Below, one piece after another: positions 20,577 to 59,760 of a stretch of 64,000 bases of DNA. The notes beneath the pieces are model-generated. The model saw only the letters and a program-made list of their open reading frames with translations, searched no databases and had not been told where the DNA came from. The position numbers and the translations under genes are program-made. How positions within the stretch are numbered: the stretch's first letter is position 1; each line of letters starts with the position of its first letter. This DNA is from a bacterium (GTDB lineage: Bacteria > Chloroflexota > Dormibacteria > Aeolococcales > Bog-877), in NCBI GenBank assembly GCA_021791415.1, contig JAJYWQ010000064.1, forward strand, positions 91,446-155,445. Reading direction: 5' to 3'.

Positions 20577-20860
20577 CCGAGCTGACAACCTTTGCGACCG
20601 GCCTGAACAACCTCATCCACACGGTGACCACCCTGGCCCTGGGGGCGGTGGCGGTCCTTTGCCTCAGCTTCGCGGCGATCCGCTACATGACCTCACTCGA
20701 CAACAGCCAGCGCCGGGCGGCCGCCATCCAGGGTCTGGTGACCGTCCTCCTGGGCGTTCTCCTGCTGGTGAACGAGGGGGCCATCCTGACCTTCGTCGAG
20801 GGGCTGACCGGCAGCAACACCGCCTGCGCGACCGCAACCTGTTCGGCGAGCGGCCCCTGA
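20573..20860 (+). CDS. Small two-TM membrane protein, TrbC/VirB2 pilin-like (set A)
   Basis: 95 aa with two hydrophobic helices. TTG start overlaps the virD4-like stop (TTGA). A paralogous gene sits at 39943. The assignment is by architecture and context only. Confidence 0.5.
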   Translation: MTELTTFATGLNNLIHTVTTLALGAVAVLCLSFAAIRYMTSLDNSQRRAAAIQGLVTVLLGVLLLVNEGAILTFVEGLTGSNTACATATCSASGP

Positions 20861-22989: not shown

Positions 22990-23360
22990 CGGACGCCGAG
23001 GTACCCCAGCCGATCTCCGACGTGCCCAGCCGGTGGGGAGGGCTGACCACGCCCCAGCTGGGCTGGCTCGGCGGTGCGGCCGCACTGCCGATGATCCTGG
23101 TCCACGCGCATTGCGGTCTGGCAGCGACTGTCACCGGGGCGGTGCCGTGGGCGGCCGGCTGTGTCGTGCTGGGCTTCGGCAGCTGCCGGGGCCGCCGGCT
23201 CGATGCCTACCTTCTTGACGCGGCGCGCTTCCGGACCCAGCGACGGCGGCTGTGCCACCCGGACGTGTCGGCGTCGCCCCAGGAGTTCCGCGCCGTGGAC
23301 GGCTCGGAGCGCTGGCCCCTGGCCTGGAACGTGCCCTCAGGAGCCCCGGCCGAGCGATGA
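22986..23360 (+). CDS. Small membrane protein, VirB3/TcpE/PrgI-like (set A)
   Basis: 125 aa with a two-TM hairpin ('LGWLGGAAALPMIL...AGCVVLGF'). ATGA overlaps with both the upstream and downstream genes. Immediately precedes VirB4, the canonical VirB3 position. Paralogous to the ORF at 36657. Confidence 0.5.
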   Translation: MTDAEVPQPISDVPSRWGGLTTPQLGWLGGAAALPMILVHAHCGLAATVTGAVPWAAGCVVLGFGSCRGRRLDAYLLDAARFRTQRRRLCHPDVSASPQEFRAVDGSERWPLAWNVPSGAPAER

Positions 23361-25558
23361 GGTTTCCCCCGCGCTCGGGATCAACCCTGGACCTCATCGA
23401 CCTCGCCTACCTGGAGGGCGGCGTTGTTCGCCTCCGGGACGGGCGCCACCGGGTGGGGCTGGAGCTGGCAGCCCTCAACCTTCTGCTGCGGTCCAGCGCC
23501 GAGCGGCAGCTGATCTGGAGGCGCTACTGGCGGGCGCTCTCGACCCTCTCGGGGCCCGTCTCCCTCTACTGCTTCTCCCGGCCCCTGTCCCCCTCCACCC
23601 AGCCGGCGGCCACCGCCAATGGGCGCCTGGACGCCGAGTACTCGGCATCACTTCTGGCCAGTGGCCAGGTCCACCTCCGTCACCACCTGGCTGTGATCTG
23701 GGACGACTCCTCCGCGAGCCTGCGGGGGGCCCTGCCAGGGAGACTCCGCCGAGGAGGAGCCCTTGACCTGGACCAGCGCCGGAGAGCCGTTGCGGCGGCA
23801 TTGGCCGGCCCTGGGCTGCGTCCCCGTCCCCTCGAGGACGGGGATTGGCTGCGCCTGCTGCAGGAGCTGACAGGTGGGCGGAGTGGACGGCCCACCGCCA
23901 GCTTCGCCAGCTGGGTGGCGCCAGAGACAGCCACGGTGAGGCCGGACCGGCTGGAGCTCTCGGACCGGGTGGCCCGCAGCCTGGTCGTGCGCGGCTTCCC
24001 CCGCCGTCTGCAGCTCGGCTGGCTAGCCCCTCTGGTCCTGGCCGCCCCTGGCCCGCTCCGGATGGCTCAGCACCTGTACCCGGTGCCCAAGGTGCACAGC
24101 CTGAGCCATCTGCGCCGGCGTATCCGCACCTTCGAGACCGGGCTGGAGGTGGACCGGCGCCAGGGTCGGCGCCCGGATGCCGGCACCCGGGCAGCACTCG
24201 AGGACGCCCTGGCCCTCGAGGAGCGGGTCCTTTTGGAGGAGGACCACCTGATGCGGCTGGTGACCTGCGTCACGGTGGAGGGGTCCAGCACGGCGGAGAT
24301 GGAGCTGGGGTGGGAGCAGGTGGTCAACACCCTCATCGAGCTTGGATGCACCCCGGTTCCGCTGTTCAACCGCCAGGCGGACGGGTGGCGGGCAACGCTG
24401 CCGCTCGGTGTGGACCCCCTCGGCTGGTCCCGGGACATGACGGCGGCAGCCACCGCCACCGCCATCCCGTTCCTGCGGGCGACCCTGGATGTGAGGAACG
24501 GGGTGCTGCTGGGGCCCAGCCCCAGCACGAGGGAGCTGGTGACCGTCGATCCCCTGGCCAGCTCCAACCCCAACCGCAACGTCCTGGTCCTGGGGACCTC
24601 CGGCGGTGGCAAATCCTTCACCTCCAAGTTGCTCGCTGCCCGCCTCTTCCTCCAGGGGTGCCGGCTCCGCTGCCTGGACCCCGCGGGGGAATACCTGAAG
24701 CTGGGGGCACTTCTCGGAGCGCGCTGCCTGGACCTGGGCGCGACCGGCGAGCCCGGCCTCAATGTTCTCGGTCCACCTGGCCAGGAGCCCGAGGGGCGGG
24801 TGGAGCGGGCCATGCCTCTGCTGACGCGGCTGCTGGGGTCGAGCCGGTCGGCCGCCGCGCGGGCCTCCCTGGAGGCCATCGGGCTGGCCGCTCTGACCGC
24901 CCTGCGGCTCCAGCCCGCTGAAGCTGGCCTCGCTGAGGTCTTGGAGCAACTGGAGGCGTCGGGCCAGGGGGAGCTCGCAGCCGGTCTGCGGCGGCGGGCT
25001 GCCGGCCCTGGTGCCGGCGTCTTCCAGGGCGCAGGCGGAGTCGGCGGCGATGACGCCCTGGTCATCTCCCTGCGCCACCTCCACGCCCGGGAGGAGCTCC
25101 TGGGGGCAGCCATGGAGCTGGTGCTCTGGCACCTCGAGGCAGACCTCGAGCACCCGCACTCCCGACCCACCCTGGTGGTCGTGGACGAGGCGGAGGTCCT
25201 GCTCTCCTCCCCATCGGGAGCGCGCTTCCTGGAGAGCATGGCCCGGCGGATCCGCAAACTGGGAGCCGGGCTGCTGGTGGTTTCCCAGGTGGTCGAGGAC
25301 TTCCTCAACTCTCCCGTGGGCAACGTGGTGATTCGCAACTGCCATACCAAGCTGCTGCTCCGCCAGGAGCCGGTGGCCCTTGCCGGGGTGCGGCGCGCCT
25401 TCTCGCTCTCCGAGGCGGAGTGCGAGCTCCTCCGAGATGCGGAGCCAGGGTGCGGGCTGGTGCTGGCGGGGGATGAGCATGCCAGCTTCCGAGGGGGAGC
25501 TCCTCAGGCTTGGTGGCCGGCCCTGACCACAGGTCAGCTGGCCGCGGGCTCCCCGTGA
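23357..25558 (+). CDS. VirB4/TrbE/TraC-family T4SS ATPase (set A)
   Basis: Walker A 'VLVLGTSGGGKSFTSKLL' followed by 'CLDPAGEY' (the DPxGE motif of VirB4). Walker B 'LVVVDEAEVLL'. 'LLVVSQ' motif. Confidence 0.85.
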   Translation: MRFPPRSGSTLDLIDLAYLEGGVVRLRDGRHRVGLELAALNLLLRSSAERQLIWRRYWRALSTLSGPVSLYCFSRPLSPSTQPAATANGRLDAEYSASLLASGQVHLRHHLAVIWDDSSASLRGALPGRLRRGGALDLDQRRRAVAAALAGPGLRPRPLEDGDWLRLLQELTGGRSGRPTASFASWVAPETATVRPDRLELSDRVARSLVVRGFPRRLQLGWLAPLVLAAPGPLRMAQHLYPVPKVHSLSHLRRRIRTFETGLEVDRRQGRRPDAGTRAALEDALALEERVLLEEDHLMRLVTCVTVEGSSTAEMELGWEQVVNTLIELGCTPVPLFNRQADGWRATLPLGVDPLGWSRDMTAAATATAIPFLRATLDVRNGVLLGPSPSTRELVTVDPLASSNPNRNVLVLGTSGGGKSFTSKLLAARLFLQGCRLRCLDPAGEYLKLGALLGARCLDLGATGEPGLNVLGPPGQEPEGRVERAMPLLTRLLGSSRSAAARASLEAIGLAALTALRLQPAEAGLAEVLEQLEASGQGELAAGLRRRAAGPGAGVFQGAGGVGGDDALVISLRHLHAREELLGAAMELVLWHLEADLEHPHSRPTLVVVDEAEVLLSSPSGARFLESMARRIRKLGAGLLVVSQVVEDFLNSPVGNVVIRNCHTKLLLRQEPVALAGVRRAFSLSEAECELLRDAEPGCGLVLAGDEHASFRGGAPQAWWPALTTGQLAAGSP

Positions 25559-26235
25559 ACCCCCGGCGCCTGCTGTCCGGCATGGGGCCCCTGCTGGCCC
25601 TGGGTTGCCTGGTCCCCGCGGTCCTTGGGGCCAGCCTCGTGGGGTTGCTGGGGGCCGGGGCAGCGGCCGCCGGGTGGCCCGCGCTGGGTGGCTTGCTCCC
25701 CGATCCTGGAGGGCTGGTCCTGCGGCCTGGAGAGGTGGTCCTGGCGAGCTCGCCCTCCTTCCCGGAGTGGGCGGCCCCGTGCGGCCCCGAGCCGGGAGCA
25801 CTGGCGGTCCAGCCCTCGGCCTGCACCGGACATCCTGAGCCGTTCCCGGCCAACTACCAGGGCTTCTCCACGGGTCAGTGCACCTGGTATGTGGCCACCC
25901 GCCGGCTGGTCACCTGGCACACCCCTCAGGGCCTCCTGGGCGGCAACGGGGGACAGTGGCTGGAGCTGGCTTCGGCGGCGGGCTATGCGGTCGGCGTCTC
26001 CCCGGAGCTGGGGGCCATCGCGGTCTACGGAGACCGCGGCCCTGGCCACGTGGCGTTCGTCGTCGGGGTGGGCGCCGACGGGTCGTACACGGTGGCGGAG
26101 TCCAACTGGGCGCTCCTCGGGCCCGTCCCGCCCTACGTGGACCTCAGGGGGGTCGCGGCCGGAGCTACCGGGAGCGCGACCGAGACACTCCTGGGGTTCG
26201 TCTACGGCCCCGCGGAGCTGCCGTCCCCATCCTGA
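25555..26235 (+). CDS. Secreted CHAP-domain peptidoglycan hydrolase (VirB1-like role)
   Basis: Signal-peptide-like N-terminus. CHAP Cys 'GQCTWYVATRR' and His 'GHVAFVVGV'. GTGA overlap with the virB4 stop. Confidence 0.75.
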   Translation: MNPRRLLSGMGPLLALGCLVPAVLGASLVGLLGAGAAAAGWPALGGLLPDPGGLVLRPGEVVLASSPSFPEWAAPCGPEPGALAVQPSACTGHPEPFPANYQGFSTGQCTWYVATRRLVTWHTPQGLLGGNGGQWLELASAAGYAVGVSPELGAIAVYGDRGPGHVAFVVGVGADGSYTVAESNWALLGPVPPYVDLRGVAAGATGSATETLLGFVYGPAELPSPS

Positions 26236-30478: not shown

Positions 30479-31435
30479 ATGCGCGGAGCCCAAGCCATTG
30501 GGCGCGTCTCGATTGCTGTGGCAATGGCCGGGTTGGTCTGGGTCTCCGCCGTGCTGGGACCAGGTCCGAACACCAGGGCCCAGCAGGGACTCGCCGGTGA
30601 CCAGGCCCAACTGACCCAGCTTCTGAACCAGCTCCGAGCCCAGGGCGACCTGGCGTCTCAGAGCCAGGTGATGGCGCTCCTGACCCAGATTGAGTCGGAG
30701 CAGGGCTACTTGAAGCAGCTGAACGCCAAGCTGGCTGCGGATCAGGCGACCTCGGCGACCCTGCAGCGGCAGATGGCGGGTGATCAGATCGCCCTCACCA
30801 ACCTGGTGTCCACCGCCTACGTGGACGGCAGCGGCAGCCAGCAGGTGGCGGAGGCGCTGGCCGCACCCAACCTCGGCCAGTTCCTCGCCAGCACCGCCCT
30901 GCCGTCGGCGGTGGCATCCCAGGTCGCCCAGTTGGTGGAGACCATCAAGCACGACCAGCAGGTGGTGGCCACGGCCGCAGCGCAACTGCAGGTCGACGAG
31001 AGCCAGGCGATGGTAGCCCAGGCGCAGCTGGGGCAGCGCTCCCAGCAGCTCCTGGCCGAGCTGACAACGCCCCAGCCGGCCATCGGCACCGGAAGCTGGT
31101 CCTTCGCCTTCGGTGACTGCACCTGGTGGGTCGCCAGCCAGAGGAAGGTCACCTGGGGCGGCAACGCCTACCAGTGGTGGGCCAACGCCGCGGCTGCCGG
31201 ATACGCCGAGGGCCAGACTCCCGAGGTGGGGTCGATCGTGGTGTGGGGCATGGACGTGCCCGGAGAGAGCTGGGGGTACGGCCACGTGGCGTACGTGGTG
31301 GCGGTCAAGCCGGGGTCCTTCGAGGTCTCGGAGATGAACTTCTACGGCGTCCCGGGGGGCGGGTGGGATCGAGTCGACTACAGATGGATTCAGGATGGCG
31401 CAGGGTACCTGGGTTTCATATACGGCCCCGCTTGA
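30479..31435 (+). CDS. Secreted coiled-coil + CHAP-domain cell-wall hydrolase (PcsB/RipA-like architecture)
   Basis: Signal peptide. Long Q/A-rich coiled coil. C-terminal CHAP domain ('GDCTWWVASQRK', 'GHVAYVVAV'). GGGAGGA RBS upstream of ATG 30479. Confidence 0.75.
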   Translation: MRGAQAIGRVSIAVAMAGLVWVSAVLGPGPNTRAQQGLAGDQAQLTQLLNQLRAQGDLASQSQVMALLTQIESEQGYLKQLNAKLAADQATSATLQRQMAGDQIALTNLVSTAYVDGSGSQQVAEALAAPNLGQFLASTALPSAVASQVAQLVETIKHDQQVVATAAAQLQVDESQAMVAQAQLGQRSQQLLAELTTPQPAIGTGSWSFAFGDCTWWVASQRKVTWGGNAYQWWANAAAAGYAEGQTPEVGSIVVWGMDVPGESWGYGHVAYVVAVKPGSFEVSEMNFYGVPGGGWDRVDYRWIQDGAGYLGFIYGPA

Positions 31436-32021
31436 GCTGACGCGGGCGCCCTCGGCGCCCGCTCAGCGAAGGGCATGGCCCAGGCTGGCCTCGAGGCTAA
31501 GGTGGGGAGCCGCCGCGCTCTGCCTGGCCGCGCTGTCCCCGGCACTGGGGGCGCTCAGCACCGGGGAGGCGGTCGGCCCCCCGTCTCCCGCCCCGGCGCT
31601 GGTGGCCCAGATCGCCGCCCAGGGCCGCAACCTCCTCAGCAGCACCGGCTACGAGATCACCATGCCGCTGGCGGTGACCAAGGTGACCCCGCCTCCGCCG
31701 CCCCAGCCATCCCTCCCCTACGGCAATGCCTTCTGGCAGCCGGTGCCAGAGCCGCCGATCGGAACCATCAAGCAGATCATCTGGGCCGCCGCCCAGAAGT
31801 ACAACGTCTCCTACGCCTGGCTCCTCGGGGTGGCCCAGTGCGAGTCCGGCCTCGACCCCACCGACGTCAACCGCTCCTCCGGGGCCAGCGGGCTCTTCCA
31901 GTTCATGCCCGCCACCTTCTACGGCCACGGAGGCACCGACATCTGGAACCCCACCCAACAGGCCGACATCGCCGCCAAGATGTTCTCCATAGGGGAGTCG
32001 TCGGAGTGGGTCTGCAAGTAG
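31395..32021 (+). CDS. Lytic transglycosylase (SLT-domain) protein
   Basis: 'AQCESGLDP' and 'SGASGLFQFMPATF' SLT motifs. The only in-frame ATG (31395) overlaps the upstream gene by 41 nt, so the start is uncertain. Confidence 0.65.
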   Translation: MAQGTWVSYTAPLELTRAPSAPAQRRAWPRLASRLRWGAAALCLAALSPALGALSTGEAVGPPSPAPALVAQIAAQGRNLLSSTGYEITMPLAVTKVTPPPPPQPSLPYGNAFWQPVPEPPIGTIKQIIWAAAQKYNVSYAWLLGVAQCESGLDPTDVNRSSGASGLFQFMPATFYGHGGTDIWNPTQQADIAAKMFSIGESSEWVCK

Positions 32022-34591: not shown

Positions 34592-35218
34592 ATGGGGCAG
34601 GTCGTGGTGGTGGGGAGCGCGGAGCTCGCCGAGCGGGTGCGCCGGCTGCTGCCCAACTTCGAAGTGCTGGGACCGGACTCCGAGCCCGAGCTCGAGGACC
34701 CGGTCTCCTCCCTGGAGACCGTCCGCACCCTTTTGGACTCCGGCTCCGCCCCGGACTCCCTGGTCTGCTCCGCCCTCCCCGGGTTCGCCCTCCTCGGCCA
34801 GGTCCCACGGCTGTCGCCGTCGCGCTGCTTTGTGACCCCCGAGGGCTCCGCATGGCCCGGGGAGACCGTCCGCTGGATGGCGGAGGCAGTCGGCATGATC
34901 GTCCTGCCGGGCCTCGAGGCGCTTCCAGCGATGCTCCTGGGTCGGTCGGCGCCCCCTCCGCCGCCGCCCCGGGGCCTCACGGCGGTGGTCGAGACGGCAG
35001 CCGCGCCACCACGCCCTCAGAGCCCCGCCATCCCGCCTCCCTCCGCCCCGACCTACGACTGGGCCGCCGAGACCCCGGTGCAGGTGCCCCCGCCACCGGT
35101 CTCCCTCGACCCCACTCCGGTACCGGCCGCGCCCCAGGTCATAGACGCCGGTGGCCCGCCGCAGACGGCCTACGAGCCCACCGACGTGCTGAGACCGCTG
35201 CGGCCCCGGAGGCGCTGA
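34592..35218 (+). CDS. Hypothetical protein with Pro-rich C-terminus
   Basis: The ORF has a plausible globular N-terminal ~120 aa. No family recognised. Confidence 0.4.
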   Translation: MGQVVVVGSAELAERVRRLLPNFEVLGPDSEPELEDPVSSLETVRTLLDSGSAPDSLVCSALPGFALLGQVPRLSPSRCFVTPEGSAWPGETVRWMAEAVGMIVLPGLEALPAMLLGRSAPPPPPPRGLTAVVETAAAPPRPQSPAIPPPSAPTYDWAAETPVQVPPPPVSLDPTPVPAAPQVIDAGGPPQTAYEPTDVLRPLRPRRR

Positions 35219-35225
35219 GAAGGAC

Positions 35226-35633
35226 ATGCCCAGCAACCCGCTCAGGCGGCGTCCGACCTCATCCCAGTTGGCCGAGCGTGCCCGCGCCGAGCTGCAACGC
35301 GCCCTGGCTGTGGTGGACGAGGCAGCCGCCACCGGCAACCTGGCGCGGCTCGGGCTGGCCCTCAGCGGGGACGCCCTGAGCGAGGTCCAGGCGCGCTTCC
35401 ACGCCTACCAGATGGCCGGCATCCAGGTGAGTCCCTTCCGCGAGGGGCTGCAGATCGAGGTGCTGGAGGAGAGCACCCAGGAGCGCGTCTGGCTCCGGGT
35501 CCGCTACCGGGACCGGACGGGATTCCTCGCCGCCAGGGTGGCGCCGGCCACCGCCGGCGACCCGGTCGAGCTGAGGGTCGGACTGGACGCCACCCAGACG
35601 CCCTGGCGCATCACGACGCTCATCGCCAGCTGA
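35226..35633 (+). CDS. Hypothetical protein
   Basis: 135-aa ORF with balanced composition (F/Y/W/I present). No family recognised. Confidence 0.4.
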   Translation: MPSNPLRRRPTSSQLAERARAELQRALAVVDEAAATGNLARLGLALSGDALSEVQARFHAYQMAGIQVSPFREGLQIEVLEESTQERVWLRVRYRDRTGFLAARVAPATAGDPVELRVGLDATQTPWRITTLIAS

Positions 35634-35698
35634 TCGGCGGCCGAAGGACGGCGTGCTAGGCTGGGAGTCCCCCGGCGCCCACGTGAGAGAAGGAAGCC

Positions 35699-36136
35699 AT
35701 GACCAACCCCCCTGACGCCGACCCGGAGCTGGAACCCGCCGCGGGCGGGCTGGACGCCGAGGAGCCGCTCGAGGATGACGTCCTTGAGGAGGAGGTGCTG
35801 GAAGAGGAGGTCCCGGTCGCTCGCCCCGCGCCCCGCCCCGCTCCTCCGCGGCCGTGGGGTGGAAGCCGCAGCAACGTCTCGGCTGAGGACCTGCCCCCCG
35901 AGGAGCTGACACCGGAGATGCGGTGGCCCCCGGGCAGCTGGGTGCGCGTCACCGACGTGGTCCGGCACAGCACCGGAGAGCCGATCGCCGGGATCCAGGT
36001 CGGCGACGTGGGCCAGGTGGTGGCGGCACTCTCCCAGACCCTGGTGGTTCTCTTCCCCACCCGCGACAACCGCCGGGAGGTGCTGCACATCGAGTCCATC
36101 GAGGCGGTGGACTCCCCGGCCGGGACGGCCCCCTGA
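35699..36136 (+). CDS. Hypothetical acidic protein
   Basis: Asp/Glu-rich N-terminus. The globular C-terminal ~70 aa ('WVRVTDVVRHSTGEPIAGIQVGDVGQVV...') resembles a small beta-barrel domain. Confidence 0.4.
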   Translation: MTNPPDADPELEPAAGGLDAEEPLEDDVLEEEVLEEEVPVARPAPRPAPPRPWGGSRSNVSAEDLPPEELTPEMRWPPGSWVRVTDVVRHSTGEPIAGIQVGDVGQVVAALSQTLVVLFPTRDNRREVLHIESIEAVDSPAGTAP

Positions 36137-36147
36137 GCCCCGACCGG

Positions 36148-36504
36148 GTGGGGCGAGAGACGCTGGCCCTCAGGGGGCTTCGCTACTTCGGCCGCCACGG
36201 GGCACATCCGGCCGAGCGCGAGCTCGGATCGCACGTGGAGGTGGACGTGGAGGTGGACGCCGACCTGGCGCTCGCCGTGGCCAGCGATCGCCTGGAGGAC
36301 ACCCTCAGCTACTCCCTGGTGGAGGCGGCTGTTCGGAGGGTGGTCCAGGGGTCGGAGTTCAACCTCCTGGAGGCGCTCGCCGGAGCGATCGCGGAGGCGG
36401 TGCTGGCGCTCCCGCGGGCGGAGCGGGTCACGGTCCGCGTCACCAAGGCGCCCCGCCTCCCCTCCCAGACGGCCGGCTTCACCTTCGAGCTCCGCCGGCC
36501 CTGA
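36148..36504 (+). CDS. folB: Dihydroneopterin aldolase
   Basis: 'LRGLRYFGRHGAHPAERELGSHVEVDVEV...DTLSYSLV...FNLLEALAGAIA' matches the FolB family pattern. GTG start. Confidence 0.7.
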   Translation: MGRETLALRGLRYFGRHGAHPAERELGSHVEVDVEVDADLALAVASDRLEDTLSYSLVEAAVRRVVQGSEFNLLEALAGAIAEAVLALPRAERVTVRVTKAPRLPSQTAGFTFELRRP

Positions 36505-36656
36505 GCCCACCGCCGGCCGGACGGCGGACGTTGGTGTGCGGCGATGGGAGTGGGCAGCTCCGGGGAGCTCGAAGGCGATGGCGAGACCGGGGGACCGGGC
36601 GCGGGCCGGCCGGGTGGGCCGTGATCCTGGCTCCAGACGGTGGGCGTGAGGAGCCG

Positions 36657-36914
36657 ATGGCCCTCGGGCTGCCGCCGGCCCGCCTGGCCCTCCTGGGGCT
36701 CGTGGTGGCGGGAGGGGCGGCGGCGCTGCGGGCTCCGCTCCCGCTGGAGCCGAGAGCTGTCCTGGCCGGGCTGGTGCTCGGCCCGGGCTCGCTCCTCGCC
36801 TGGGCCAGGCTGCTGGAGCTCTCCGCCCTGGGCTGGTGCGAGCGGCTGGCCGCCTACTGGCTGCGCTCCCTCGCCGGGCTGGCGGAACGGTCGTCTTGGA
36901 TGGATGCCGCATAG
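36657..36914 (+). CDS. Small two-TM membrane protein, VirB3/TcpE-like (set B)
   Basis: GAGGAG RBS. 'GLPPARLALLGLVVAGGAAAL' parallels 'GLTTPQLGWLGGAAAL' of the set-A protein. It overlaps the downstream ATPase ORF by up to 79 nt, so it may be shorter or spurious. Confidence 0.4.
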   Translation: MALGLPPARLALLGLVVAGGAAALRAPLPLEPRAVLAGLVLGPGSLLAWARLLELSALGWCERLAAYWLRSLAGLAERSSWMDAA

Positions 36915-38800
36915 CTCCAGCGAGGTCTTCCGAGGCCGAGCGGGCGATCGAGGTCGCCGGGCCGGACATCCTCGACGCCCGCCCTGTGCCCAGAGCCCAG
37001 CTGCTGGCCGGGTTCGAGGCCTGGCTGGACCAGCTGGATGCCCCGGTCCGCCTCACCGTCACCTCGCGAGCCGCTGAGGGCCGGCGCCGGCGGTCGGTCT
37101 GGCTGCGGTCGGCCGGCGCCGAACGGGCCCCCCAGGCGGCGGCGCAGCTGGAGAGGCTCTGCGGGGCGAAGGTGCGCGGATCGAGGACCTTCCCGCCCCT
37201 GGTGGAGGGTCCCGGCCGGGAGCGAGTCACCGGAGTCGATTGGGCGGGCCGGTGGGTGGAGTGCCTCCGCCTCACCACGCTGCCACGGGTCCCGGTCGAA
37301 GCGGGTTGGCTGTGGCAGCTGGTGGGCGAGCCTCAGGACCTCGATCTCACCGTGAGCATTTCGCCGGTGGCCGCCGGCACCGCCGACCGCCGACTCCGCC
37401 ACCGCTTGAGGGAGCTGGCCGCCCGCGAGCTGGAGACAGATCGGGGGATGCCCGACCCGGCCCTGGTGGTCGAGAGAGCTGCGGCCACCCGCCTCAGGGA
37501 GGTTCTGGCGCGGGGAGAGGGGCGGGCGTTCGAGGTGGCGGTCTCGATGGCGGTCGGGGGAGGTGCCGTGGCGGAGGTGAGGGCGGCCGCGGCGCGGCTG
37601 CGACGCCGGGCGCTGGGGATGCGGGCCCAGCTGGCCCCGGCCTGGCTGGACGAGGGTCCGGCCCTGCTGGAGGCGAGGGGATGTCGGAGGCCGCGACGAC
37701 CCTTCATCCGGCTGCTCACCACCCCCGAGGTGGCCACCTTCTGGCCCTGGTTGGACGGGCCAGGGGAGCTGGAGCCGCAGAGCTGCCGGATTGGCCGCCA
37801 CCTGCGCACCCAGGGGCCGGTGGGACTGAAGCTGGCCGCGTCGGCCGCCGCCCCCAACTCCAACTGTTGCGTCATCGCCACCTCGGGCGCGGGCAAGTCC
37901 TACCTGGCGCGCGTGGTGGGTGCGGCTCAGGCGCTGGCCGGGACCCAGACGGTGGTCGTGGACCCCGAGAACGAGCACCGGCTCTGGTGTGAGGCCGTGG
38001 GCGGGCGCTACCTCGACCTGGGCCGGGGCGGCGGGCTCGGCTTCAACGTCTTCGAGGCCGGCACTCCCGGCGAGGGGGAGCTCGCCGCCCGGGAGCTGGT
38101 CGAGCTGTTGGCCGGCCCCCTCTCGCCGGCGGAGGCCGGCGCCTTCCTGGAGGGGTGCGCCGCTGCCCGGCCGAGTGCCGGTGGCCGGACACCTGTGCTG
38201 GCGGACCTGCTGGGGAGGCTGGCCGGCGACCCCCACGGACGGAGCCTGGCCGCCCGGCTGCGGCCGTGGGTCGAGGGGCCAGCCGGGCTGCTCTTCAGCG
38301 GTCCCGGCCGGGGCCCGGAGGTGACCCGCGCCCTGGGGGTGGGGCTGCGCGACCTTCCCGAGCGCTGGCGCGCGGGGGCCGCCTTCCTGGTTTCGCGATG
38401 GCTGTGGGCCTGGGCCCAACGGGAGCCCGGTCCCAAGCAGGTCATCATCGACGAGGCCGGCCTGCTGGCCGCCCAGCCCCAGCTGGCCGAGCTGATGGGG
38501 CAGATGGCCCGGCGGCTGCGCAAGTATTCCGGCTCCCTGCTGCTTCTGACCCAGACGCCCCGCGACCTGGCGGTCGAGGGATTTGGCGAGCTGGTCGCCA
38601 GCAACTCCGCGACCCTCCTGGTGGGGTCGTCGACGGGGCCCGGGGTCCAACGCCTCAGATCGGGCTTCCACCTCAGCGACGAGGACTGCGAGTGGCTGCA
38701 GCGGTGCTCCCGAGGGGAGTTCCTCATGCTGGCCGGGGCCACCCAGGCCCGGGTCAGGGTGGAGGCGCCCGACGAGGGGACGGGCGACGACCGGGGATAG
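36836..38800 (+). CDS. VirB4/TrbE-family T4SS ATPase, second paralogue (set B)
   Basis: Walker A 'CVIATSGAGKSYLARVV' followed by 'VVDPENEH'. Walker B 'VIIDEAGLL'. 'LLLLTQTP'. The N-terminal region aligns with the set-A VirB4 ('GGTVVLDG...PRAQLLAGFEAWLDQL' vs 'GGVVRLRDG...ERQLIWRRYWRAL'). The GTG 36836 start is uncertain. Confidence 0.8.
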   Translation: MRAAGRLLAALPRRAGGTVVLDGCRIAPARSSEAERAIEVAGPDILDARPVPRAQLLAGFEAWLDQLDAPVRLTVTSRAAEGRRRRSVWLRSAGAERAPQAAAQLERLCGAKVRGSRTFPPLVEGPGRERVTGVDWAGRWVECLRLTTLPRVPVEAGWLWQLVGEPQDLDLTVSISPVAAGTADRRLRHRLRELAARELETDRGMPDPALVVERAAATRLREVLARGEGRAFEVAVSMAVGGGAVAEVRAAAARLRRRALGMRAQLAPAWLDEGPALLEARGCRRPRRPFIRLLTTPEVATFWPWLDGPGELEPQSCRIGRHLRTQGPVGLKLAASAAAPNSNCCVIATSGAGKSYLARVVGAAQALAGTQTVVVDPENEHRLWCEAVGGRYLDLGRGGGLGFNVFEAGTPGEGELAARELVELLAGPLSPAEAGAFLEGCAAARPSAGGRTPVLADLLGRLAGDPHGRSLAARLRPWVEGPAGLLFSGPGRGPEVTRALGVGLRDLPERWRAGAAFLVSRWLWAWAQREPGPKQVIIDEAGLLAAQPQLAELMGQMARRLRKYSGSLLLLTQTPRDLAVEGFGELVASNSATLLVGSSTGPGVQRLRSGFHLSDEDCEWLQRCSRGEFLMLAGATQARVRVEAPDEGTGDDRG

Positions 38801-38809
38801 AATCGCCCC

Positions 38810-39406
38810 ATGGGTCGGGTGGTGCGCTACCGACTGCTCAACTCCGGCCGTGCCCCCGCAGCCGCCTGGGAGGAGGCTGTTCGCCAGTTCGCGGCCACCC
38901 GCAGCTGGCGGGAGGGGGAGATGTGGCTGGCGACCGACGCCTCCCGCGGCCTCTTCGAGTCCGAATACCTCCGCCACCTGCGGCTGGAGACCCCCGACCC
39001 CATCCTGGGGGCGGGCTTCGTCAAGGTGGAGGGCGACGAGACCGACGCTCTGGCTGTCTGCTTCGGGCTCCTGCGGATGACCGAGGAGCAGGGGGGGCGC
39101 GTTCTCATCGACGACCTGGACAACCCCATCCGCAAGCAGCGGCGGCTGGAGTTCATCGAGGGAAGGGTCAGTGGACCCCACACCATCGACGAGCTGATGG
39201 TCGCCGGGCCGATCTTCAAGCGGCTGCCCCGGGCGACCATCACCTTCTACCCCCCGCGCTATAGGGGCCGGACCCTTCCCGGCCCGAACACTCCCGCGGG
39301 GCAGTGGGGCTTCGCCCTCCAGGGGATGCGCGCCGCGGCGGGCGGCTTCCTGGAGGCGGAGGCGGAGGCGATGCGGATCTACCGCGGCCTGCAGGCGATC
39401 GGCTGA
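38810..39406 (+). CDS. Hypothetical protein encoded between the second VirB4-like gene and dtd
   Basis: 198-aa ORF with balanced composition and no TM. No family recognised. Confidence 0.5.
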   Translation: MGRVVRYRLLNSGRAPAAAWEEAVRQFAATRSWREGEMWLATDASRGLFESEYLRHLRLETPDPILGAGFVKVEGDETDALAVCFGLLRMTEEQGGRVLIDDLDNPIRKQRRLEFIEGRVSGPHTIDELMVAGPIFKRLPRATITFYPPRYRGRTLPGPNTPAGQWGFALQGMRAAAGGFLEAEAEAMRIYRGLQAIG

Positions 39407-39408
39407 CC

Positions 39409-39879
39409 TTGAGGGCCGTGGTCCAGCGGGTTCAGCAAGCTGCGGTCCGGGTCCAGGGGGAGGAGGTGGGGGCCACCGGGCCCGGGCTGCTGGTGTACCT
39501 GGGTGTGGGGCCAAGGGACGATGACGGCGTTGCCCGCCATCTGGCCGGCCGCATCGCCACCCTCCGGGTGTTCCCCGACGACCAGGGCAGGATGAACCGC
39601 TCCCTGCTGGAGGTGGGCGGCCAGGCGCTGGTGGTGAGCCAGTTCACCCTGTATGCCGCCACCGGGCGCGGCCACCGGCCATCCTTCCTGGGGGCGGCAG
39701 CCCCGGCCACGGCGGCCGAACTCTGCCGCCGGTTCGGGGAGGAGCTGAGCCGGTTGGGGGTGGCGAGGGTGGCCGAGGGCCGTTTCGGCGCCCACATGGA
39801 GGTTGAGTCGGTGAACGATGGGCCGGTGACCGTGGTCCTCAGTTCGGGCGAGGCGCCCTGGGAGGCGGACTGCGGCTGA
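39409..39879 (+). CDS. dtd: D-aminoacyl-tRNA deacylase
   Basis: 'RAVVQRV', 'LLVYLGV' and 'VVSQFTLYA' (SQFTL) motifs. TTG start 2 nt after the upstream stop. Confidence 0.8.
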   Translation: MRAVVQRVQQAAVRVQGEEVGATGPGLLVYLGVGPRDDDGVARHLAGRIATLRVFPDDQGRMNRSLLEVGGQALVVSQFTLYAATGRGHRPSFLGAAAPATAAELCRRFGEELSRLGVARVAEGRFGAHMEVESVNDGPVTVVLSSGEAPWEADCG

Positions 39880-39942
39880 GGGGCCAGGCCCGGGGCGCCG
39901 CCGGACCTAAGTGAGGATCGGCGGCAAGCGCGGAGGAACCCC

Positions 39943-40182
39943 ATGGCCCAACTGGTTTCGCTACTCAATTCCTGGATTCTCCTGGGACAGGAGCTGATCG
40001 CCAGCCTGGGCACCCTGGCCTTCGTGTGCGCCTTCATCTGGCGGGTGGTCGCCCCCAGCCCTCACAGCGCCCTGGAGGCGCAGCGGTGGCTGGGGCGGAT
40101 CGCCATCGGGACCTTGGGAGTGGAGCTGGCCGGGGTCCTGACCCACGTCCTGCTCTCCGCGGTGCCCCGCGGGTTGGGCTGA
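39943..40182 (+). CDS. Small two-TM membrane protein, TrbC/VirB2 pilin-like (set B)
   Basis: 79 aa. GGAGGA RBS. Same hairpin architecture as the ORF at 20573. Confidence 0.45.
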   Translation: MAQLVSLLNSWILLGQELIASLGTLAFVCAFIWRVVAPSPHSALEAQRWLGRIAIGTLGVELAGVLTHVLLSAVPRGLG

Positions 40183-40194
40183 CCGAAAGCGGCC

Positions 40195-41091
40195 ATGCCC
40201 GGGCCACCCCAGTTCGGCATCAACCCTCTGGGGGTACTGGCCGGGCTCTTCGACGGGATCCTCTCCGAGTTCGTCAGCAGCGCCCGAGGAGCCCTGGACG
40301 CGGCCCTCAAGAGCTACCTCTTCGGCACCTATGACGCCGCCGGGGGACGCGCCCAGGCGCCCTTCACCGGGACGCCGGGCCTGGCCGGCCTCAACCACCT
40401 GCTGGCGGCTGCGGGGGGGGCGCTGCTGCTGGCGGTGCTGCTGTACAGCTCGCTGCGCACGGTGGCGGACCTGGGCGCGGTCCGTCACCAGCTTCAGCAG
40501 GTGCTTCCCCGGTGCCTGGCAGCGGTGGCGCTGGCCACGGTGAGCCTGCCCCTCCTGCAGCAGGTGATCGATCTCAACAATGCCCTCTGTGCCGTGGTGG
40601 TCGGCGGCGCCCAACTCTCCCTGAGCGCCCTCCCCTGGAGCTCTCCGCTCAGCCAGCAGGGGGTCCAGTCCGCGGGGGAGAACCTCTTCCTCCTGCTCTT
40701 CGCCGCGGCCCTCGTGGTGGCCGTGGTGATCCTGGCGCTGAGCTACGTGGTCCGCTACACCCTGCTGGCCGTCCTGTGTGCCGCCGCCCCCCTGGCCGCC
40801 TACTGCACCGTGCTGCCCGAGACCCGGGGATTCGCCCGGCAGTGGGGCAGGCTCCTGGTGGTCTCACTGTTCATGCAGTTCGGCCAGCTCCTCGTGCTGC
40901 GGGTGGCGGTGCAGCTGGCGTTCACCAGGGGGGGCGGGCTGGCCGGAATGCTCTACGCCCTCGCCAGCCTCTACCTCATGCTCCGGGTCCCGGGAGCGCT
41001 CAACGTGGCCACCCACTACGAGTCCAGCGCCGAGGCCGCGGCCCGGAGGTGGAGCCGCGCGGTGCGGCGCCTATCCGTGGGAGAGCTCTGA
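40195..41091 (+). CDS. Polytopic membrane protein, VirB6/TrbL-like (set B)
   Basis: Roughly 6 TM helices. Position after the pilin-like gene mirrors set A. Confidence 0.5.
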   Translation: MPGPPQFGINPLGVLAGLFDGILSEFVSSARGALDAALKSYLFGTYDAAGGRAQAPFTGTPGLAGLNHLLAAAGGALLLAVLLYSSLRTVADLGAVRHQLQQVLPRCLAAVALATVSLPLLQQVIDLNNALCAVVVGGAQLSLSALPWSSPLSQQGVQSAGENLFLLLFAAALVVAVVILALSYVVRYTLLAVLCAAAPLAAYCTVLPETRGFARQWGRLLVVSLFMQFGQLLVLRVAVQLAFTRGGGLAGMLYALASLYLMLRVPGALNVATHYESSAEAAARRWSRAVRRLSVGEL

Positions 41092-41098
41092 GCCCAGG

Positions 41099-41701
41099 TC
41101 AGAGGCTGACGTGGACCTCGCGCAGCCGAAGGCCGAGGGCCTGCTCCAGCCGCCCAAACACCGGATGCGGCCGAAGGCTGGGGCGGTGGTCCAGGTCGCC
41201 GAAGGTGATCTCCATCCGGGCGCGGGGAAGCTCCGGGGTGAAGCTGACCGCCAGCAGCGACACCGATCCGCCGCAGGTCGGGCAGCTGGCGGTGTGGGGG
41301 TCGGGGTGGGGGAAGCGGAGCGAGAAGAGGTCCAGATCGCTCCCGCAGCTCGGACAGGGCGCCCGGTAGGAGCGCAGGGGAACCGAGTCGAAGCCCTCGG
41401 GCCCGGGGTCCGGATAGAAGCGGAGAATCCCCACATCCACCCGGACCTCCCCACGGGGCGGTGCGCCGACAAGGGGGAGCCCGCCGGGCCGGGCTCCCAG
41501 CGCACCCGCGAACTCGGGCCCCGGCAAGAGCGAACCTTCCGGGCCCGGGGCGGCGATCCCCGCCTGCAAAAGCACCTTCCGGGCCCGGGCTTCCGCGCCC
41601 GGCGGGGGCGGCTGGTCCGGGTCCTGGGGCAGCAGGTGCAACCAGCTGCGGTGGGGGTGGGGCCCCAGCCCGCCATCCGGGCGTGGAGCGGCGACAGGCA
41701 C
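41099..41701 (-). CDS. Hypothetical zinc-ribbon protein
   Basis: 'CPSCGSDLD...CPTCGGS' paired CxxC motifs. Overlapping plus-strand ORFs are Pro/Gly/Arg-rich artefacts. Confidence 0.4.
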   Translation of the reverse strand: MPVAAPRPDGGLGPHPHRSWLHLLPQDPDQPPPPGAEARARKVLLQAGIAAPGPEGSLLPGPEFAGALGARPGGLPLVGAPPRGEVRVDVGILRFYPDPGPEGFDSVPLRSYRAPCPSCGSDLDLFSLRFPHPDPHTASCPTCGGSVSLLAVSFTPELPRARMEITFGDLDHRPSLRPHPVFGRLEQALGLRLREVHVSL

Positions 41702-49737: not shown

Positions 49738-50316
49738 CGCGTGCAGCCTACACGAAGAAGGCCGCGGCGCTGCTATCGTCGCCGGGGTGGAGCCCTCCCC
49801 CCCACCGCCGATCCGGGCCGAGCTGGTCGAGAGCCGGAGAGCTCGTCCCCGGGCGACGGGTGCCGTCCTGGTGGCCGCGCTCCCGCTGCTGGCCCGGCTC
49901 GCGGTCTGGTGGCTGTCACGCCCCCGCTCGGGATCCGCTCCGGAACGGGGGGCGCCGGCCTCCCAGGTAGAGCGCACGGAGATGTGGGTCTCCAGGCGCT
50001 GGCCCGGCAGATGGAAGCTCCGCGTCGTCAGCACCAGGTGGATGGTGGCGCCCCCACCTCCTCGCGGCGGCAGCGCGGCTTCCTGGCTCCGGCTCCTGGC
50101 CCGCGGCGGGACCCCGGCCGCCGGTGGCCCCCCCTCCGATCTCCTCGGGTTGCCGGCGCCCACCGGGGCCGACAAGAGGCTGGGCTGAGGGCGCAGCCCG
50201 GGGTGACCGGGACTGACGTTCTCCCGGGATGCCGTCGCCGGGCCGTCACCGCTCTTGCGGACTGCCGCGATCGCTGTTAGGATCGCGGCGAGACAGACTT
50301 GCTCTCGTCCCTCCCC

Positions 50317-51465
50317 ATGTCTCGACCACTGAAATCGCGGCTGCTGCGCCTGACCGCCCAACTGGGTCTGTTCGGCACGCTGGTGCTGGGTGCGGCGGCG
50401 ATCGTGGCCCGGCCGGCAGGGGCCAGCAACATCGGGGCACAGATCGCTCAGTTGCAGGCTCAGGAGAGCGCCCTCCGCAGCCAGCTTGCCGGCATCCAGG
50501 GGCAGGCCTCCTCGGCAGCCCAAGAGGCGGCGGCCACCCAGCAGCAGGTGGCCGCCGCCCAGGCCAAGCTCGCGCAGGGGCAGGCTGAGCTGGCCCAGGC
50601 GAACGCCGCCCTGGCCCAGACCAACGACCGCATCGGGCAGACGCAGGCGCAGATCGTCCTGGACCGCACCCAGCTGGCTCAGCTGGTCCGGGAGATGTAC
50701 CAGCACGGTAACGCCAACAACCTCTCGACGGCGATCGCCGACAGCTCGGGGGTGACCCAGTTCTTCGACACCACGCTGCAGCTCCAGACGGTGGGTCAGC
50801 AGTTCAGCTCCCTCACCCAGGAACTCACCTCCGAGGAGGCCCAGCTCCGGACCCTCCAGGCGAGCCAGCAGGCGCAGCAGCAGAGGGTCACCGCCCTGGT
50901 GGCATCGTTCCAGGCGGCCGCCAACCAGCTCCAGGCCCAGGAGCTCAGCTTCCAGAGCCAGGCCAGCTCACTCTCGGGTCAGGCGGGTCAGCTCGCCTCC
51001 CAGATCCAGCAGCTCGCGTCCCAGATCCAGACCCTGCAGGCGGAGGAGGCGGCGATCAGCGCCTACGGCGGCCCCGCCAGCGCCGAGGAGGGGACCATCC
51101 TGAAGACCTTCCCGGCACCGGCACCGGCCTATCCGGACGGGTACCCCTGGGGTCAGTGCACCTGGTTCGTGGCCGGGCAGACCAACGTGCCCTGGCAGCC
51201 GCGAGGCAACGCGGACCAGTGGATCGGCGCGGACTACTCCATGGGCACCCCCTACGCCGTGGGCTCCACCCCGAGGGTGGACTCCATGGTGGTCTTCGAC
51301 CCCGGGGGGATCTACGACTACTACTACGGGCACGTCGCCTGGGTGGTGGCGGTCCTGGGGCCCACCACCTTCATCGTGGAGGAGGACAACTTCTACGGGT
51401 ACGGGCTGGCGGACCAGCGCGAGATCTACACCCTGCAGGGGGTCGAAGGTTTCATCTACGGTTAG
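50317..51465 (+). CDS. Secreted coiled-coil + CHAP-domain cell-wall hydrolase (second PcsB-like paralogue)
   Basis: Signal peptide. Long Q/A-rich coiled coil. CHAP domain ('GQCTWFVAGQ', 'GHVAWVVAV'). Confidence 0.75.
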   Translation: MSRPLKSRLLRLTAQLGLFGTLVLGAAAIVARPAGASNIGAQIAQLQAQESALRSQLAGIQGQASSAAQEAAATQQQVAAAQAKLAQGQAELAQANAALAQTNDRIGQTQAQIVLDRTQLAQLVREMYQHGNANNLSTAIADSSGVTQFFDTTLQLQTVGQQFSSLTQELTSEEAQLRTLQASQQAQQQRVTALVASFQAAANQLQAQELSFQSQASSLSGQAGQLASQIQQLASQIQTLQAEEAAISAYGGPASAEEGTILKTFPAPAPAYPDGYPWGQCTWFVAGQTNVPWQPRGNADQWIGADYSMGTPYAVGSTPRVDSMVVFDPGGIYDYYYGHVAWVVAVLGPTTFIVEEDNFYGYGLADQREIYTLQGVEGFIYG

Positions 51466-58662: not shown

Positions 58663-58734
58663 CGTTGCTGATGACAGGCGAGGGTTACAGTTGACGCGGG
58701 CGCGCATGCAGGGTCCGGTTGGCGGGTGACGGAG

Positions 58735-59760
58735 ATGAGCTTGCTGTCGGCAGAGTTGGGCATCGACCTGGGGACCGCCAACACGGTGGTCTGCCGCCGC
58801 GACGGCACCATCCTTCTGAACGAGCCCTCGGTCATGCTGGTGACGGTGGGGGCGGACGGCAACCGTCGCCCCATCCTGGTCGGCCGCCAGGCCCGCGAGC
58901 TCACCGGACGGACGCCGGTGGGCATGGCCACGGTTCGACCGATCCGGGACGGCGTGGTCACCGACCTGCAGTCAGCCAAGGGGTTCATCAACGTGGTGAT
59001 CCACCAGGTCACCCGCCGCCCCTGGGAGCGCTTCCGCCCCCGGGCGATCTGCGGGGTCCCGGCCGGAGCGACCGGGTTGGAGAGGCAAGCCCTGGTGGAG
59101 GCGCTGGAGGAGGCGGGGATCGGGCACGCTGACCTCATCCCCGAGCCCGTGGCGGGGGCGATCGGCTGTGGCATCGACCCCCTGGAGGCGCGGGCGCACA
59201 TGGTGGTGGACGTGGGCGGAGGGACCGCCGAGGTGACCGCCATCTGCTTCGGGGGCATCCTGGCGGCCAGCTCATGCCGGGTGGCGGGCGACGAGATGAC
59301 CGCTGCCCTCAACCAGTACCTCCGCCAGGAGCACCACCTGATCGTCGGGGAGCTGACCGCCGAGGACATCAAGATCCGGCTGCGCAAGGTGGACTCCGCC
59401 CCCAGCCCCATAGTGGTCGAGGGGCGCGACGTGTTCAGCGGAAAGCCCCGGATGCAGACCCTGGACCCGGACGAGGCGGCGCTCGCCATCCGCCCCACCG
59501 TGGACGGGATCGTGGAGGCGCTGGCCGAGGTCCTGGACCGCCTGCCGCCCCAGGCGGTGGGCGACATCATGCAAGGAGGGGTGCTGGCGTTCGGCGGCGG
59601 ATCGCTGCTGGAGGGGTTCCAACGCCATCTGGAGGACGCCCTGGGCTTCTCCGTGACGCTGGCGGAGCGACCGCTCACCTGCGTCGCGGAGGGGGCGGCG
59701 AAGGCCCTCTCGCAGCCCCGGGTCCTGGCGGCGTTCAAGGGAGCCCCTCCCCAGGCCTGA
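58735..59760 (+). CDS. mreB: Rod-shape-determining actin-like protein MreB
   Basis: 'LGIDLGTANTVV' phosphate-1 motif and 'VVDVGGGTAEV' phosphate-2 motif. Confidence 0.85.
   Translation: MSLLSAELGIDLGTANTVVCRRDGTILLNEPSVMLVTVGADGNRRPILVGRQARELTGRTPVGMATVRPIRDGVVTDLQSAKGFINVVIHQVTRRPWERFRPRAICGVPAGATGLERQALVEALEEAGIGHADLIPEPVAGAIGCGIDPLEARAHMVVDVGGGTAEVTAICFGGILAASSCRVAGDEMTAALNQYLRQEHHLIVGELTAEDIKIRLRKVDSAPSPIVVEGRDVFSGKPRMQTLDPDEAALAIRPTVDGIVEALAEVLDRLPPQAVGDIMQGGVLAFGGGSLLEGFQRHLEDALGFSVTLAERPLTCVAEGAAKALSQPRVLAAFKGAPPQA

Follow-up and report, generated by a model that had tools for sequence, protein, structure and literature searches.

Gene content of the 36.6-41.1 kb interval

The window analyzed here is a 64,000-nucleotide stretch of a Dormibacteria contig (JAJYWQ010000064.1, positions 91,446 to 155,445 of the forward strand, assembly GCA_021791415.1), and the subject is a group of genes in it that resemble components of a type IV secretion system (T4SS). 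This group, termed set B, lies on the + strand, ∼13 kb downstream of a first such group, set A. The original prediction had placed in set B VirB3-like, VirB4-like, pilin-like and VirB6-like open reading frames (ORFs), with an orphan ORF and the housekeeping gene dtd among them. The presence of a second T4SS-like set was confirmed, and the predicted interval was found to run from the first ATG (36657) to the last stop codon (41091). The G+C content was 73% and uniform across the whole window, and set B had the same composition as its flanks. Because of this G+C content the raw ORF lists consisted mostly of spurious frames. The genes in the interval were called by third-position GC (GC3) frame analysis, which gave an unbroken run of six genes on the + strand between 36.6 and 41.1 kb. 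These genes and one spacer motif are:

36621..36914, +, small two-helix membrane protein (TM protein); first ATG at 36657, alternative starts GTG 36621 and TTG 36531
36896..38800, +, VirB4b, VirB4-family ATPase of 634 aa; Pfam AAA_10 37.9 bits and P-loop_TraG 30.9 bits, both above the cut-offs
38810..39406, +, orf198, 198 aa; no match in Pfam or NCBIfam
39409..39879, +, dtd, D-aminoacyl-tRNA deacylase, TTG start; Tyr_Deacylase E 2.9e-49, TIGR00256 142.8 bits (cut-off 101.5)
39902..39911, +, spacer motif CGGAC[AC]TA[GT]G, ∼32 nt before the p79 start, with a GGAGG ribosome-binding site after the motif
39943..40182, +, p79, 79 aa, two hydrophobic helices; T4SS-pilin-like (VirB2/TrbC-type) family
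40195..41091, +, TrbL/VirB6-like polytopic membrane protein of 298 aa; Pfam TrbL_4 E 2.6e-9, 37.3 bits (cut-off 27)

The stop codon of the TM protein gene lay beyond the VirB4b start, with an overlap of 19 nt. Across the Dormibacterota genomes compared, the gaps between VirB4b and orf198 were mostly 9-64 nt, the orf198-dtd gap was 2-7 nt (32/32 genomes) and the p79-TrbL gap was 9-17 nt in 31 of 32 genomes. Between dtd and p79 the gaps measured 60-81 nt, except in four genomes (L029, L030, L042 and L043) with 282-527 nt. From these gap sizes the block was divided into three tightly coupled units, namely TM protein-VirB4b, orf198-dtd and p79-TrbL. An Rfam scan of the whole window returned a single tRNA only.

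The Walker A (SGAGKS) and Walker B (IIDEAG) motifs of VirB4b were invariant across 15 orthologs. By sequence, the best solved relative of the protein was the C-terminal domain of Thermoanaerobacter VirB4 (4AG5), followed by TrwK, and its top four NCBIfam matches all belonged to VirB4 or TraC families, including CD1110. The AlphaFold model of VirB4b (pLDDT, the predicted local distance difference test score, of 72) was matched by Foldseek to full-length TrwK/VirB4 of the R388 T4SS (8rtd, 7o43) with E-values from 7e-22 to 3e-17, and since the alignment covered ∼720-750 columns, it included the N-terminal domain. The best match of the model to HerA/DndH had an E-value of 2e-8 and that to the coupling protein TrwB one of 1e-5; a PHROG terminase family reached only ∼1e-10. 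An affiliation of the ATPase with a non-T4SS FtsK/HerA clade, which would have spoken against the original prediction, was not found, as the VirB4 matches were better by many orders of magnitude. Similarly, a HerA-like ATPase of a defence system was considered and rejected, because the PADLOC mad8 match (E 4e-10) was far weaker than the VirB4 evidence. Judged from sequence and model, VirB4b is a true, full-length VirB4 whose affinity to this family exceeds that to HerA, FtsK or VirD4, and it forms a divergent VirB4 clade of its own.

The TM protein, with its two hydrophobic helices, occupies the position directly upstream of VirB4b that is typical of VirB3/PrgI. Its start is more likely the GTG at 36621 (or the TTG at 36531) than the ATG at 36657, because homology continues upstream of the latter. 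Of 35 Dormibacterota loci that were checked, 24 had kept the motif F-x-D..(D/E)GE..[VI]ALGLP..RL upstream of VirB4b, and the protein may be described as weakly VirB3/PrgI-like. Its length varied considerably: it measured 85-127 aa in the clade of the window and 255-437 aa in many other Dormibacteria (L001 9144-10004, L003 9078-10004, L016-L041). The extra C-terminal part of the long forms looks like a degenerate ParA/MinD P-loop domain. A separate 210-aa ParA/MinD-like gene was observed ahead of the VirB4-like gene in the outgroup contig L169.

The hydrophobic helices of p79 were located at residues 11-38 and 53-71, a topology identical to that of the set-A pilin. A search of 1.84 billion representative proteins yielded 37 relatives of p79. 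Among the 26 that were scanned, four matched T4SS_pilin (sub-threshold, including one at 5.5e-4), one matched TrbC/VirB2 (2.1e-7) and one DUF4134, and a single p79 ortholog matched T4SS_pilin over its full length with a sub-threshold E-value of 8.4e-4. The link to pilins is made through the more distant relatives of p79 only. The window protein had no obvious leader, and the N-terminus of a distant relative (P0289) was signal-peptide-like. With moderate confidence, p79 is regarded as pilin-like, and the predicted second pilin-like ORF is supported by these family members. The predicted second VirB6-like ORF corresponds to the TrbL protein, which surpassed the TrbL_4 cut-off; it had ∼5 hydrophobic segments and its orthologs were annotated as TrbL_4 or TrbL_3.

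The dtd gene, which does lie within set B between VirB4b/orf198 and p79, encoded the SQFTL and NDGPVT motifs, and its TIGR00256 match was at the equivalog level. Each of the 32 Dormibacterota contigs covering dtd had the gene in this position. For orf198, 391 homologs were retrieved, none of them with a family annotation, and its structural model (pLDDT 88) showed likeness only to generic alpha/beta sandwiches. In four of four outgroup contigs orf198 was linked to dtd, and three of these carried no T4SS genes nearby. These three (L168, L170 and L171, the latter at 8001-9997) were of Chloroflexota type, one being labeled Limnocylindrales, and had the order melibiase, orf198, alpha/beta hydrolase, dtd. 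The fourth, L169, was deeper and labeled Dormibacteraeota, with the order VirB4-like gene, 600-aa gene, orf198, dtd. The 600-aa gene was tested as a possible VirB6 and showed no similarity; it was read as a putative glycoside hydrolase, and its position is occupied by the melibiase in the other three outgroup loci. Since the pair is linked in outgroups that have no T4SS nearby, orf198 was assigned as a partner of dtd and not as a T4SS part, so that the description of this gene as an orphan ORF had to be given up. The orf198-dtd pair is regarded as the older, housekeeping unit, with the T4SS genes having come to lie around it. As all genes are on one strand and separated by short gaps, dtd could plausibly be co-transcribed with the T4SS genes, although the data do not require this. 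As a new and widespread partner of dtd, orf198 deserves study in its own right.

Set A and its relation to set B

Set A was found 13.5 kb upstream of set B on the same strand. Its genes, identified by Pfam, and the hydrolase pair between the two sets are:

19023-20576, +, VirD4
20573-20860, +, T4SS pilin
20881-22989, +, VirB6-like protein of 702 aa (Pfam scan of set A and alignment of the TrbL core)
22986-23360, +, PrgI
23357-25558, +, VirB4 (VirB4a)
25555-26235, +, CHAP hydrolase
30524..32021, +, CHAP and SLT hydrolase pair between the sets (Pfam CHAP 4.1e-17, SLT 1e-10)

The two VirB4 proteins were compared by BLASTP and by hhalign, the latter with profiles built from 17 set-A and 15 set-B orthologs. 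The predicted alignment of the N-terminal domains held at the profile level (probability 97.7%, E 1.3e-12, 21% identity) but not in BLASTP, which aligned the C-terminal ATPase half only (34% identity over 317 aa, E 3e-25). In the profile comparison the C-terminal domains aligned with an E-value of 4.7e-32 and the full proteins over 604 columns with an E-value of 7.4e-40. The similarity therefore extends far beyond the P-loop, and as a full-length VirB4b is homologous to VirB4a along its length, set B was confirmed as a paralogous module and not a fragment. Walker A and B were retained in both VirB4a and VirB4b. The core of the 702-aa set-A protein also aligned with the set-B TrbL in hhalign (probability 84%, E 7.6e-6), and the small proteins of the two sets showed no similarity to each other in pairwise BLASTP.

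A neighbor-joining tree was calculated from 51 VirB4s (570 columns, 200 bootstraps, built without reference T4SS classes). Clade A and clade B were each monophyletic in 200/200 bootstraps, and the two were sisters in 0/200. Clade B grouped loosely with the metagenomic VirB4 P0028 and the VirB4-like gene of the outgroup contig L169, and clade A grouped loosely with the metagenomic protein P0159. Neither joined the clade of P0068, the only VirB4 labeled Patescibacteria, which is weak evidence. Because the distances were saturated and the deep nodes lacked support, only an old paralogy was concluded from the tree. A recent tandem duplication from A to B was rejected: besides the absence of a sister relationship, VirB4a and VirB4b were more distant from one another than each was from outside VirB4s. 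The phylogeny thus agreed with paralogous sets but not with a local duplication, and sets A and B appear to carry ancient, separate VirB4 clades.

Conservation of the locus in Dormibacterota

The orthologs of VirB4b with 40-90% identity all came, wherever they were named, from metagenome-assembled genomes (MAGs) of Candidatus Dormibacteria/Dormibacterota. Identity then dropped to ∼32% for the next relatives, which were VirB4s of Chloroflexota, Actinobacteria and others. VirB4a had the same identity pattern with still fewer outside relatives. A genome scan that used one genome per species and two exact peptide patterns, and that drew on incomplete MAGs, recovered ∼35 Dormibacterota genomes, including a 2.49-Mb chromosome record (L026) and a 2.39-Mb contig. 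Several of the MAGs carrying this Dormibacterota-specific block (L018, L021 and L039) were titled Acidiferrales, Micrarchaeaceae archaeon or Nanopelagicaceae, and these labels are probably wrong.

When the window proteins were searched by tblastn, the gene order was the same in all ∼35 genomes as far as the contigs reached. It began with UbiA (- strand), hemE, CHAP, SLT, M20, an enolase resembling o-succinylbenzoate synthase (OSBS), three genes coding for proteins of no known family and folB, and continued with the TM protein, VirB4b, orf198, dtd, p79, TrbL, the zinc-ribbon protein (- strand), a small TM protein and RDD (- strand). The CHAP and SLT pair was at the same position wherever a contig extended far enough upstream. 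The order of the set-A genes was identical in nine distant Dormibacterota contigs, and the flanks of set A were also kept, with plsY-fumC-PBP1-response regulator upstream and UbiA-hemE downstream. Of the 62 called window genes 52 were scanned, and none of these was a relaxase, integrase or replication gene; neither relaxase nor integrase occurred in the Pfam annotations of related contigs.

The ratios of nonsynonymous to synonymous substitution rates (dN/dS) against close relatives were 0.02-0.07 for p79, 0.07-0.10 for TrbL, 0.09-0.10 for orf198, 0.14-0.21 for the TM protein and 0.18-0.23 for VirB4b; those of the housekeeping neighbors folB and dtd were 0.08-0.28. Set B appears to be a fixed chromosomal trait under purifying selection that is vertically inherited in every sampled Dormibacterota genome, and not an ICE (integrative and conjugative element) or its remnant.

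VirB4 is normally the best-conserved protein of a T4SS. Between the window and distant Dormibacterota this ranking was inverted: the VirB4s and PrgI were the least conserved (VirB4b 40-46%, VirB4a 46-55%, set-A PrgI 38-49% identity) and the pilin-like proteins the most (p79 72-87%, set-A pilin 81-90%). The set-B TrbL had 62-72% identity and the 702-aa set-A protein mostly 65-72%. That the pilin-like proteins are so invariant speaks against their being exposed to diversifying selection and in favor of a role under structural constraint, perhaps within the envelope.

The genes adjoining set B are:

34592-36136, on the + strand block, three conserved genes for proteins of 208, 135 and 145 aa, between the OSBS-like gene and folB in all loci reaching them
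36148-36504, on the + strand block, folB, directly upstream of set B
41099-41701, -, zinc-ribbon protein of 200 aa, convergent and directly after TrbL; the zinc-ribbon matches were weak

The C-terminal 90 aa of the third upstream gene (145 aa) were ∼80% identical across the sampled genomes. As candidates for VirB8-like parts, the three upstream genes were rejected, since no match was obtained in Pfam, NCBIfam, PADLOC or PDB profiles; they could be undetected T4SS accessory parts. The zinc-ribbon gene was kept after TrbL in most loci and evolved faster than its neighbors (dN/dS 0.31-0.36).

Further genes of the window concern the cell wall and amino acid metabolism. The M20 hydrolase gene overlapped an enolase gene that passed the OSBS cut-off of TIGR01928 (32312-34560), a family shared by OSBS and N-succinylamino acid racemase (NSAR). 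A pairing of M20 with an OSBS/NSAR enolase is known from the pathway that converts D- to L-amino acids. Together with dtd and the wall hydrolases nearby, this hints at a D-amino-acid theme, and the enolase could equally be MenC next to UbiA/MenA. At 59771-62767 (- strand) a single ORF of 998 aa fused RodA/FtsW (SEDS) to the dimerization and transpeptidase domains of a penicillin-binding protein (PBP); the adjoining gene at 58726-59760 was read as MreB-like, a tentative assignment from the N-terminal sequence only. The window contained three CHAP-domain proteins (25555-26235, 30524-31435 and 50299-51465), and a CHAP gene was also observed downstream of set B in distant contigs.

Proposed apparatus and comparison with known systems

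Set B would supply a protein at the VirB3/PrgI position, a second VirB4 motor, the VirB2-type pilin-like p79 and a VirB6/TrbL channel. Neither a coupling protein nor a wall hydrolase was encoded in set B itself; set A contained VirD4 and a CHAP hydrolase, and the CHAP and SLT pair lay between the sets. CHAP and SLT are the domain types of the VirB1-like hydrolases in Gram-positive T4SSs. Since set B is without VirD4 and hydrolase, a single relaxase-less apparatus with two VirB4 paralogs and two pilin/VirB6 pairs appears most likely; alternatively, the two sets could form two closely cooperating assemblies. We estimate a probability of roughly two in three that set B functions with set A in one of these two forms and is a half-set fixed in the chromosome, inherited vertically and of the monoderm type, resembling the FATA class of mating-pair formation systems (MPF-FATA). 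We infer that such an apparatus would serve a need of the host, for example the uptake or release of DNA, the export of proteins or an exchange that depends on contact, and not the conjugation of a plasmid or ICE, which suggests that the uncultured, soil-dwelling Dormibacterota have turned a conjugation-type machine to their own use. The set-B genes would have come to flank the orf198-dtd pair, after which the arrangement was frozen, and dtd would probably share the long + strand transcript without being a mechanistic part of the machine.

Several points weigh against this reading. The ties that suggest one machine are the complementary gene content of A and B and their co-conservation. Both VirB4s scored below every curated NCBIfam cut-off (for VirB4b 52-59 bits against cut-offs of 325-643 bits for TIGR00929, CD1110, TraC and others). 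The VirB3-like assignment in the original prediction fits in position and in the two helices and is weak at the family level: the TM protein aligned in register with the set-A PrgI in hhalign (E 3e-4) with a probability of only 39%, one ortholog gave sub-threshold matches to DUF3487 (E 1.3e-3) and PrgI (E 0.07), and the window protein had no match to Pfam PrgI. Similarly, the window p79 had no Pfam pilin match and showed no significant similarity to the set-A pilin in hhalign, whether in local, global or low-mact mode. A VirB8-like component was not among the genes identified. Other parts of the genome could encode a relaxase, and the prevalence of the block is bounded by the exact patterns and incomplete MAGs of the genome scan. 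As for a common transcript, consensus scans for promoters and terminators between 35.5 and 42.3 kb gave zero sites, a result that is uninformative at 73% GC, and the motif CGGAC[AC]TA[GT]G, which an alignment of 29 distinct sequences revealed in nearly all Dormibacterota dtd-p79 spacers, may be an internal promoter or an operator or regulator site for p79-TrbL.

The alternative that survives best, though we consider it unlikely, is that set B is an independent second machine, for example a ComB-type DNA-uptake or pilus system without VirD4 that uses only VirB3, VirB4, a pilin and VirB6. The deep separation of the VirB4 clades, which were never recovered as sisters, is in line with two machines, as is the fact that each set has its own pilin-like, VirB3-position and VirB6-like gene. 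The sets are also 10.4 kb apart, with ∼13 mostly housekeeping genes in between, and the outgroup contig L169 has a B-like VirB4 beside orf198-dtd and no set-A genes within 8 kb. The ComB system of Helicobacter pylori works without VirD4. However, set B would then have to function without a wall hydrolase or coupling protein of its own, and both sets were conserved together with the CHAP and SLT pair, as one frozen block, in every contig that was long enough.

We give a still smaller chance, and regard it as quite doubtful, that there is a functional tie of dtd and orf198 with the secretion genes, for example a co-regulation because Dtd must proofread D-amino acids freed when CHAP/SLT remodel the wall, the embedding then being adaptive. 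The position of dtd between VirB4b and p79 in 32/32 genomes, on the same strand and with short gaps, would fit such a tie, and so would the CHAP and SLT genes of the block and its M20 hydrolase gene, whose neighbor codes for an enolase of the OSBS/NSAR family (TIGR01928, 320 bits). The three outgroup contigs in which the pair stands without a T4SS nearby indicate, on the other hand, that it needs no T4SS, and the enolase may simply be MenC. Adjacency itself carries little functional information here, because the whole region is frozen including the unrelated hemE, folB and ubiA.

Another possibility, that an integrated mobile T4SS captured dtd and left set B as its decaying remainder, is largely refuted and hardly credible: its families are typical of Gram-positive conjugative elements (CD1110/CD1115-like VirB4 and VirD4, TrbL_4, T4SS_pilin) and the closest VirB4s from outside belong to Chloroflexota and Actinobacteria, but the scanned window genes yielded neither a relaxase nor an integrase nor repeats, position and order were identical in ∼35 species while VirB4b diverged to 40% identity, and the dN/dS of 0.02-0.23, the intact ATPase motifs and the flank-like composition speak against decay. 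The framing of the locus as a mobile T4SS that the original prediction implied was abandoned for the same absence of relaxase and integrase and the same fixed order.

Going beyond the cooperation of sets A and B, a more far-reaching proposal, which we put forward as speculative and improbable as it stands, is that Dormibacteria possess a lineage-wide and possibly essential T4SS-derived envelope machine with two VirB4s and invariant pilin-like subunits, which was wired into a wall and housekeeping block (PBP1, CHAP, SLT, dtd, folB, hemE) before the sampled lineages diverged. If true, the machine would correspond, in free-living bacteria, to the Patescibacteria T4SS and might share ancestry with it, given that the phyla are sisters; a non-conjugative role of a monoderm T4SS, in DNA uptake, cell-cell exchange or secretion, would then have existed in the common ancestor of Chloroflexota, Dormibacterota and the Candidate Phyla Radiation (CPR). 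Candidatus Dormibacterota are abundant in soil and, to our knowledge, have no cultured representative and almost no described cell biology, and a literature search found no description of a T4SS in this phylum. The component families of the locus are ordinary; its genomic status and duplication pattern are unusual. A fixed conjugation-type machine with two motors, without a nearby relaxase and under purifying selection, would be a core trait of Dormibacterota and not mobile DNA. For annotation, this means that one should avoid counting T4SS genes of Dormibacterota as ICEs or taking them to indicate horizontal gene transfer.

The Gram-positive T4SSs of ICEBs1 (Con), pCF10 (Prg/Pcf) and pIP501 (Tra) consist of VirD4, VirB4, the VirB3-like ConD/PrgI and the VirB6-like ConG/PrgH, together with a CHAP/SLT wall hydrolase (CwlT, PrgK or TraG), and have no outer-membrane core proteins. 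The Dormibacterota sets share these component families. In contrast to them, the Gram-positive conjugation systems are mobile, with a relaxase, an oriT and an integrase or replication module, have one VirB4 and no interleaved housekeeping genes, and are patchily distributed among related strains. ComB of H. pylori, which serves natural transformation, is also a chromosomal, relaxase-less T4SS split into two operons, and in this it resembles the sets described here, for which a host function would be assumed. It differs in being a diderm system with VirB7-10 homologs, no VirD4 and a single VirB4.

The systems that come closest to the Dormibacterota locus are those of Rickettsiales and Patescibacteria. 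In Rickettsia, the VirB4 and VirB6 genes of the rvh (Rickettsiales vir homolog) T4SS are duplicated, scattered and vertically inherited (PMC2653234). The Dormibacterota locus is similar in being a vertical, chromosomal T4SS with ancient VirB4/VirB6 duplicates, parts placed among housekeeping genes and a conserved order. Unlike sets A and B, the diderm rvh system is of the P-type (VirB/D4), has VirB7-11 and belongs to bacteria with an obligate intracellular life, and whereas only one copy of each duplicate is canonical in Rickettsia (PMC2653234), both VirB4s keep Walker A and B here.

Patescibacteria (CPR) encode a chromosomal, relaxase-less, MPF-FATA-like T4SS (PMC12102498). In that study Dormibacterota appeared only as a sister lineage, Dormibacterota and Chloroflexota being placed as the sister branch of CPR (PMC12102498). 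Like the locus described here, the Patescibacteria system is chromosomal, widespread in an uncultured lineage and without a relaxase nearby, it is composed of the monoderm parts VirB4, PrgI/VirB3, VirB6 and VirB2-like pilins, and a non-conjugative co-option has been proposed for it (PMC12102498). It has also been reported to be origin-proximal, often lying near the replication origin (PMC12102498). In OY969577.1 (L026), the one closed chromosome record, the Dormibacterota block was at 105806-127725 of 2486370, ∼0.11-0.13 Mb from the record start, a position that would echo this if the record starts at dnaA. The two systems differ in that the Dormibacterota locus has two VirB4s and two partial sets in one frozen block of ∼22 kb with interleaved housekeeping genes, and in that its host is free-living with a genome of ∼2.4-2.5 Mb. 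VirD4 adjoins VirB4a here but is rarely near virB4 in CPR, and the pilin-like proteins are ∼80-85% identical in the sampled genomes here, compared with an average of ∼25% for Patescibacteria pilins (PMC12102498). The Dormibacterota locus would thereby extend the Patescibacteria case to a free-living sister lineage and provide a second, independent place in which the function and origin of a domesticated monoderm T4SS can be studied.

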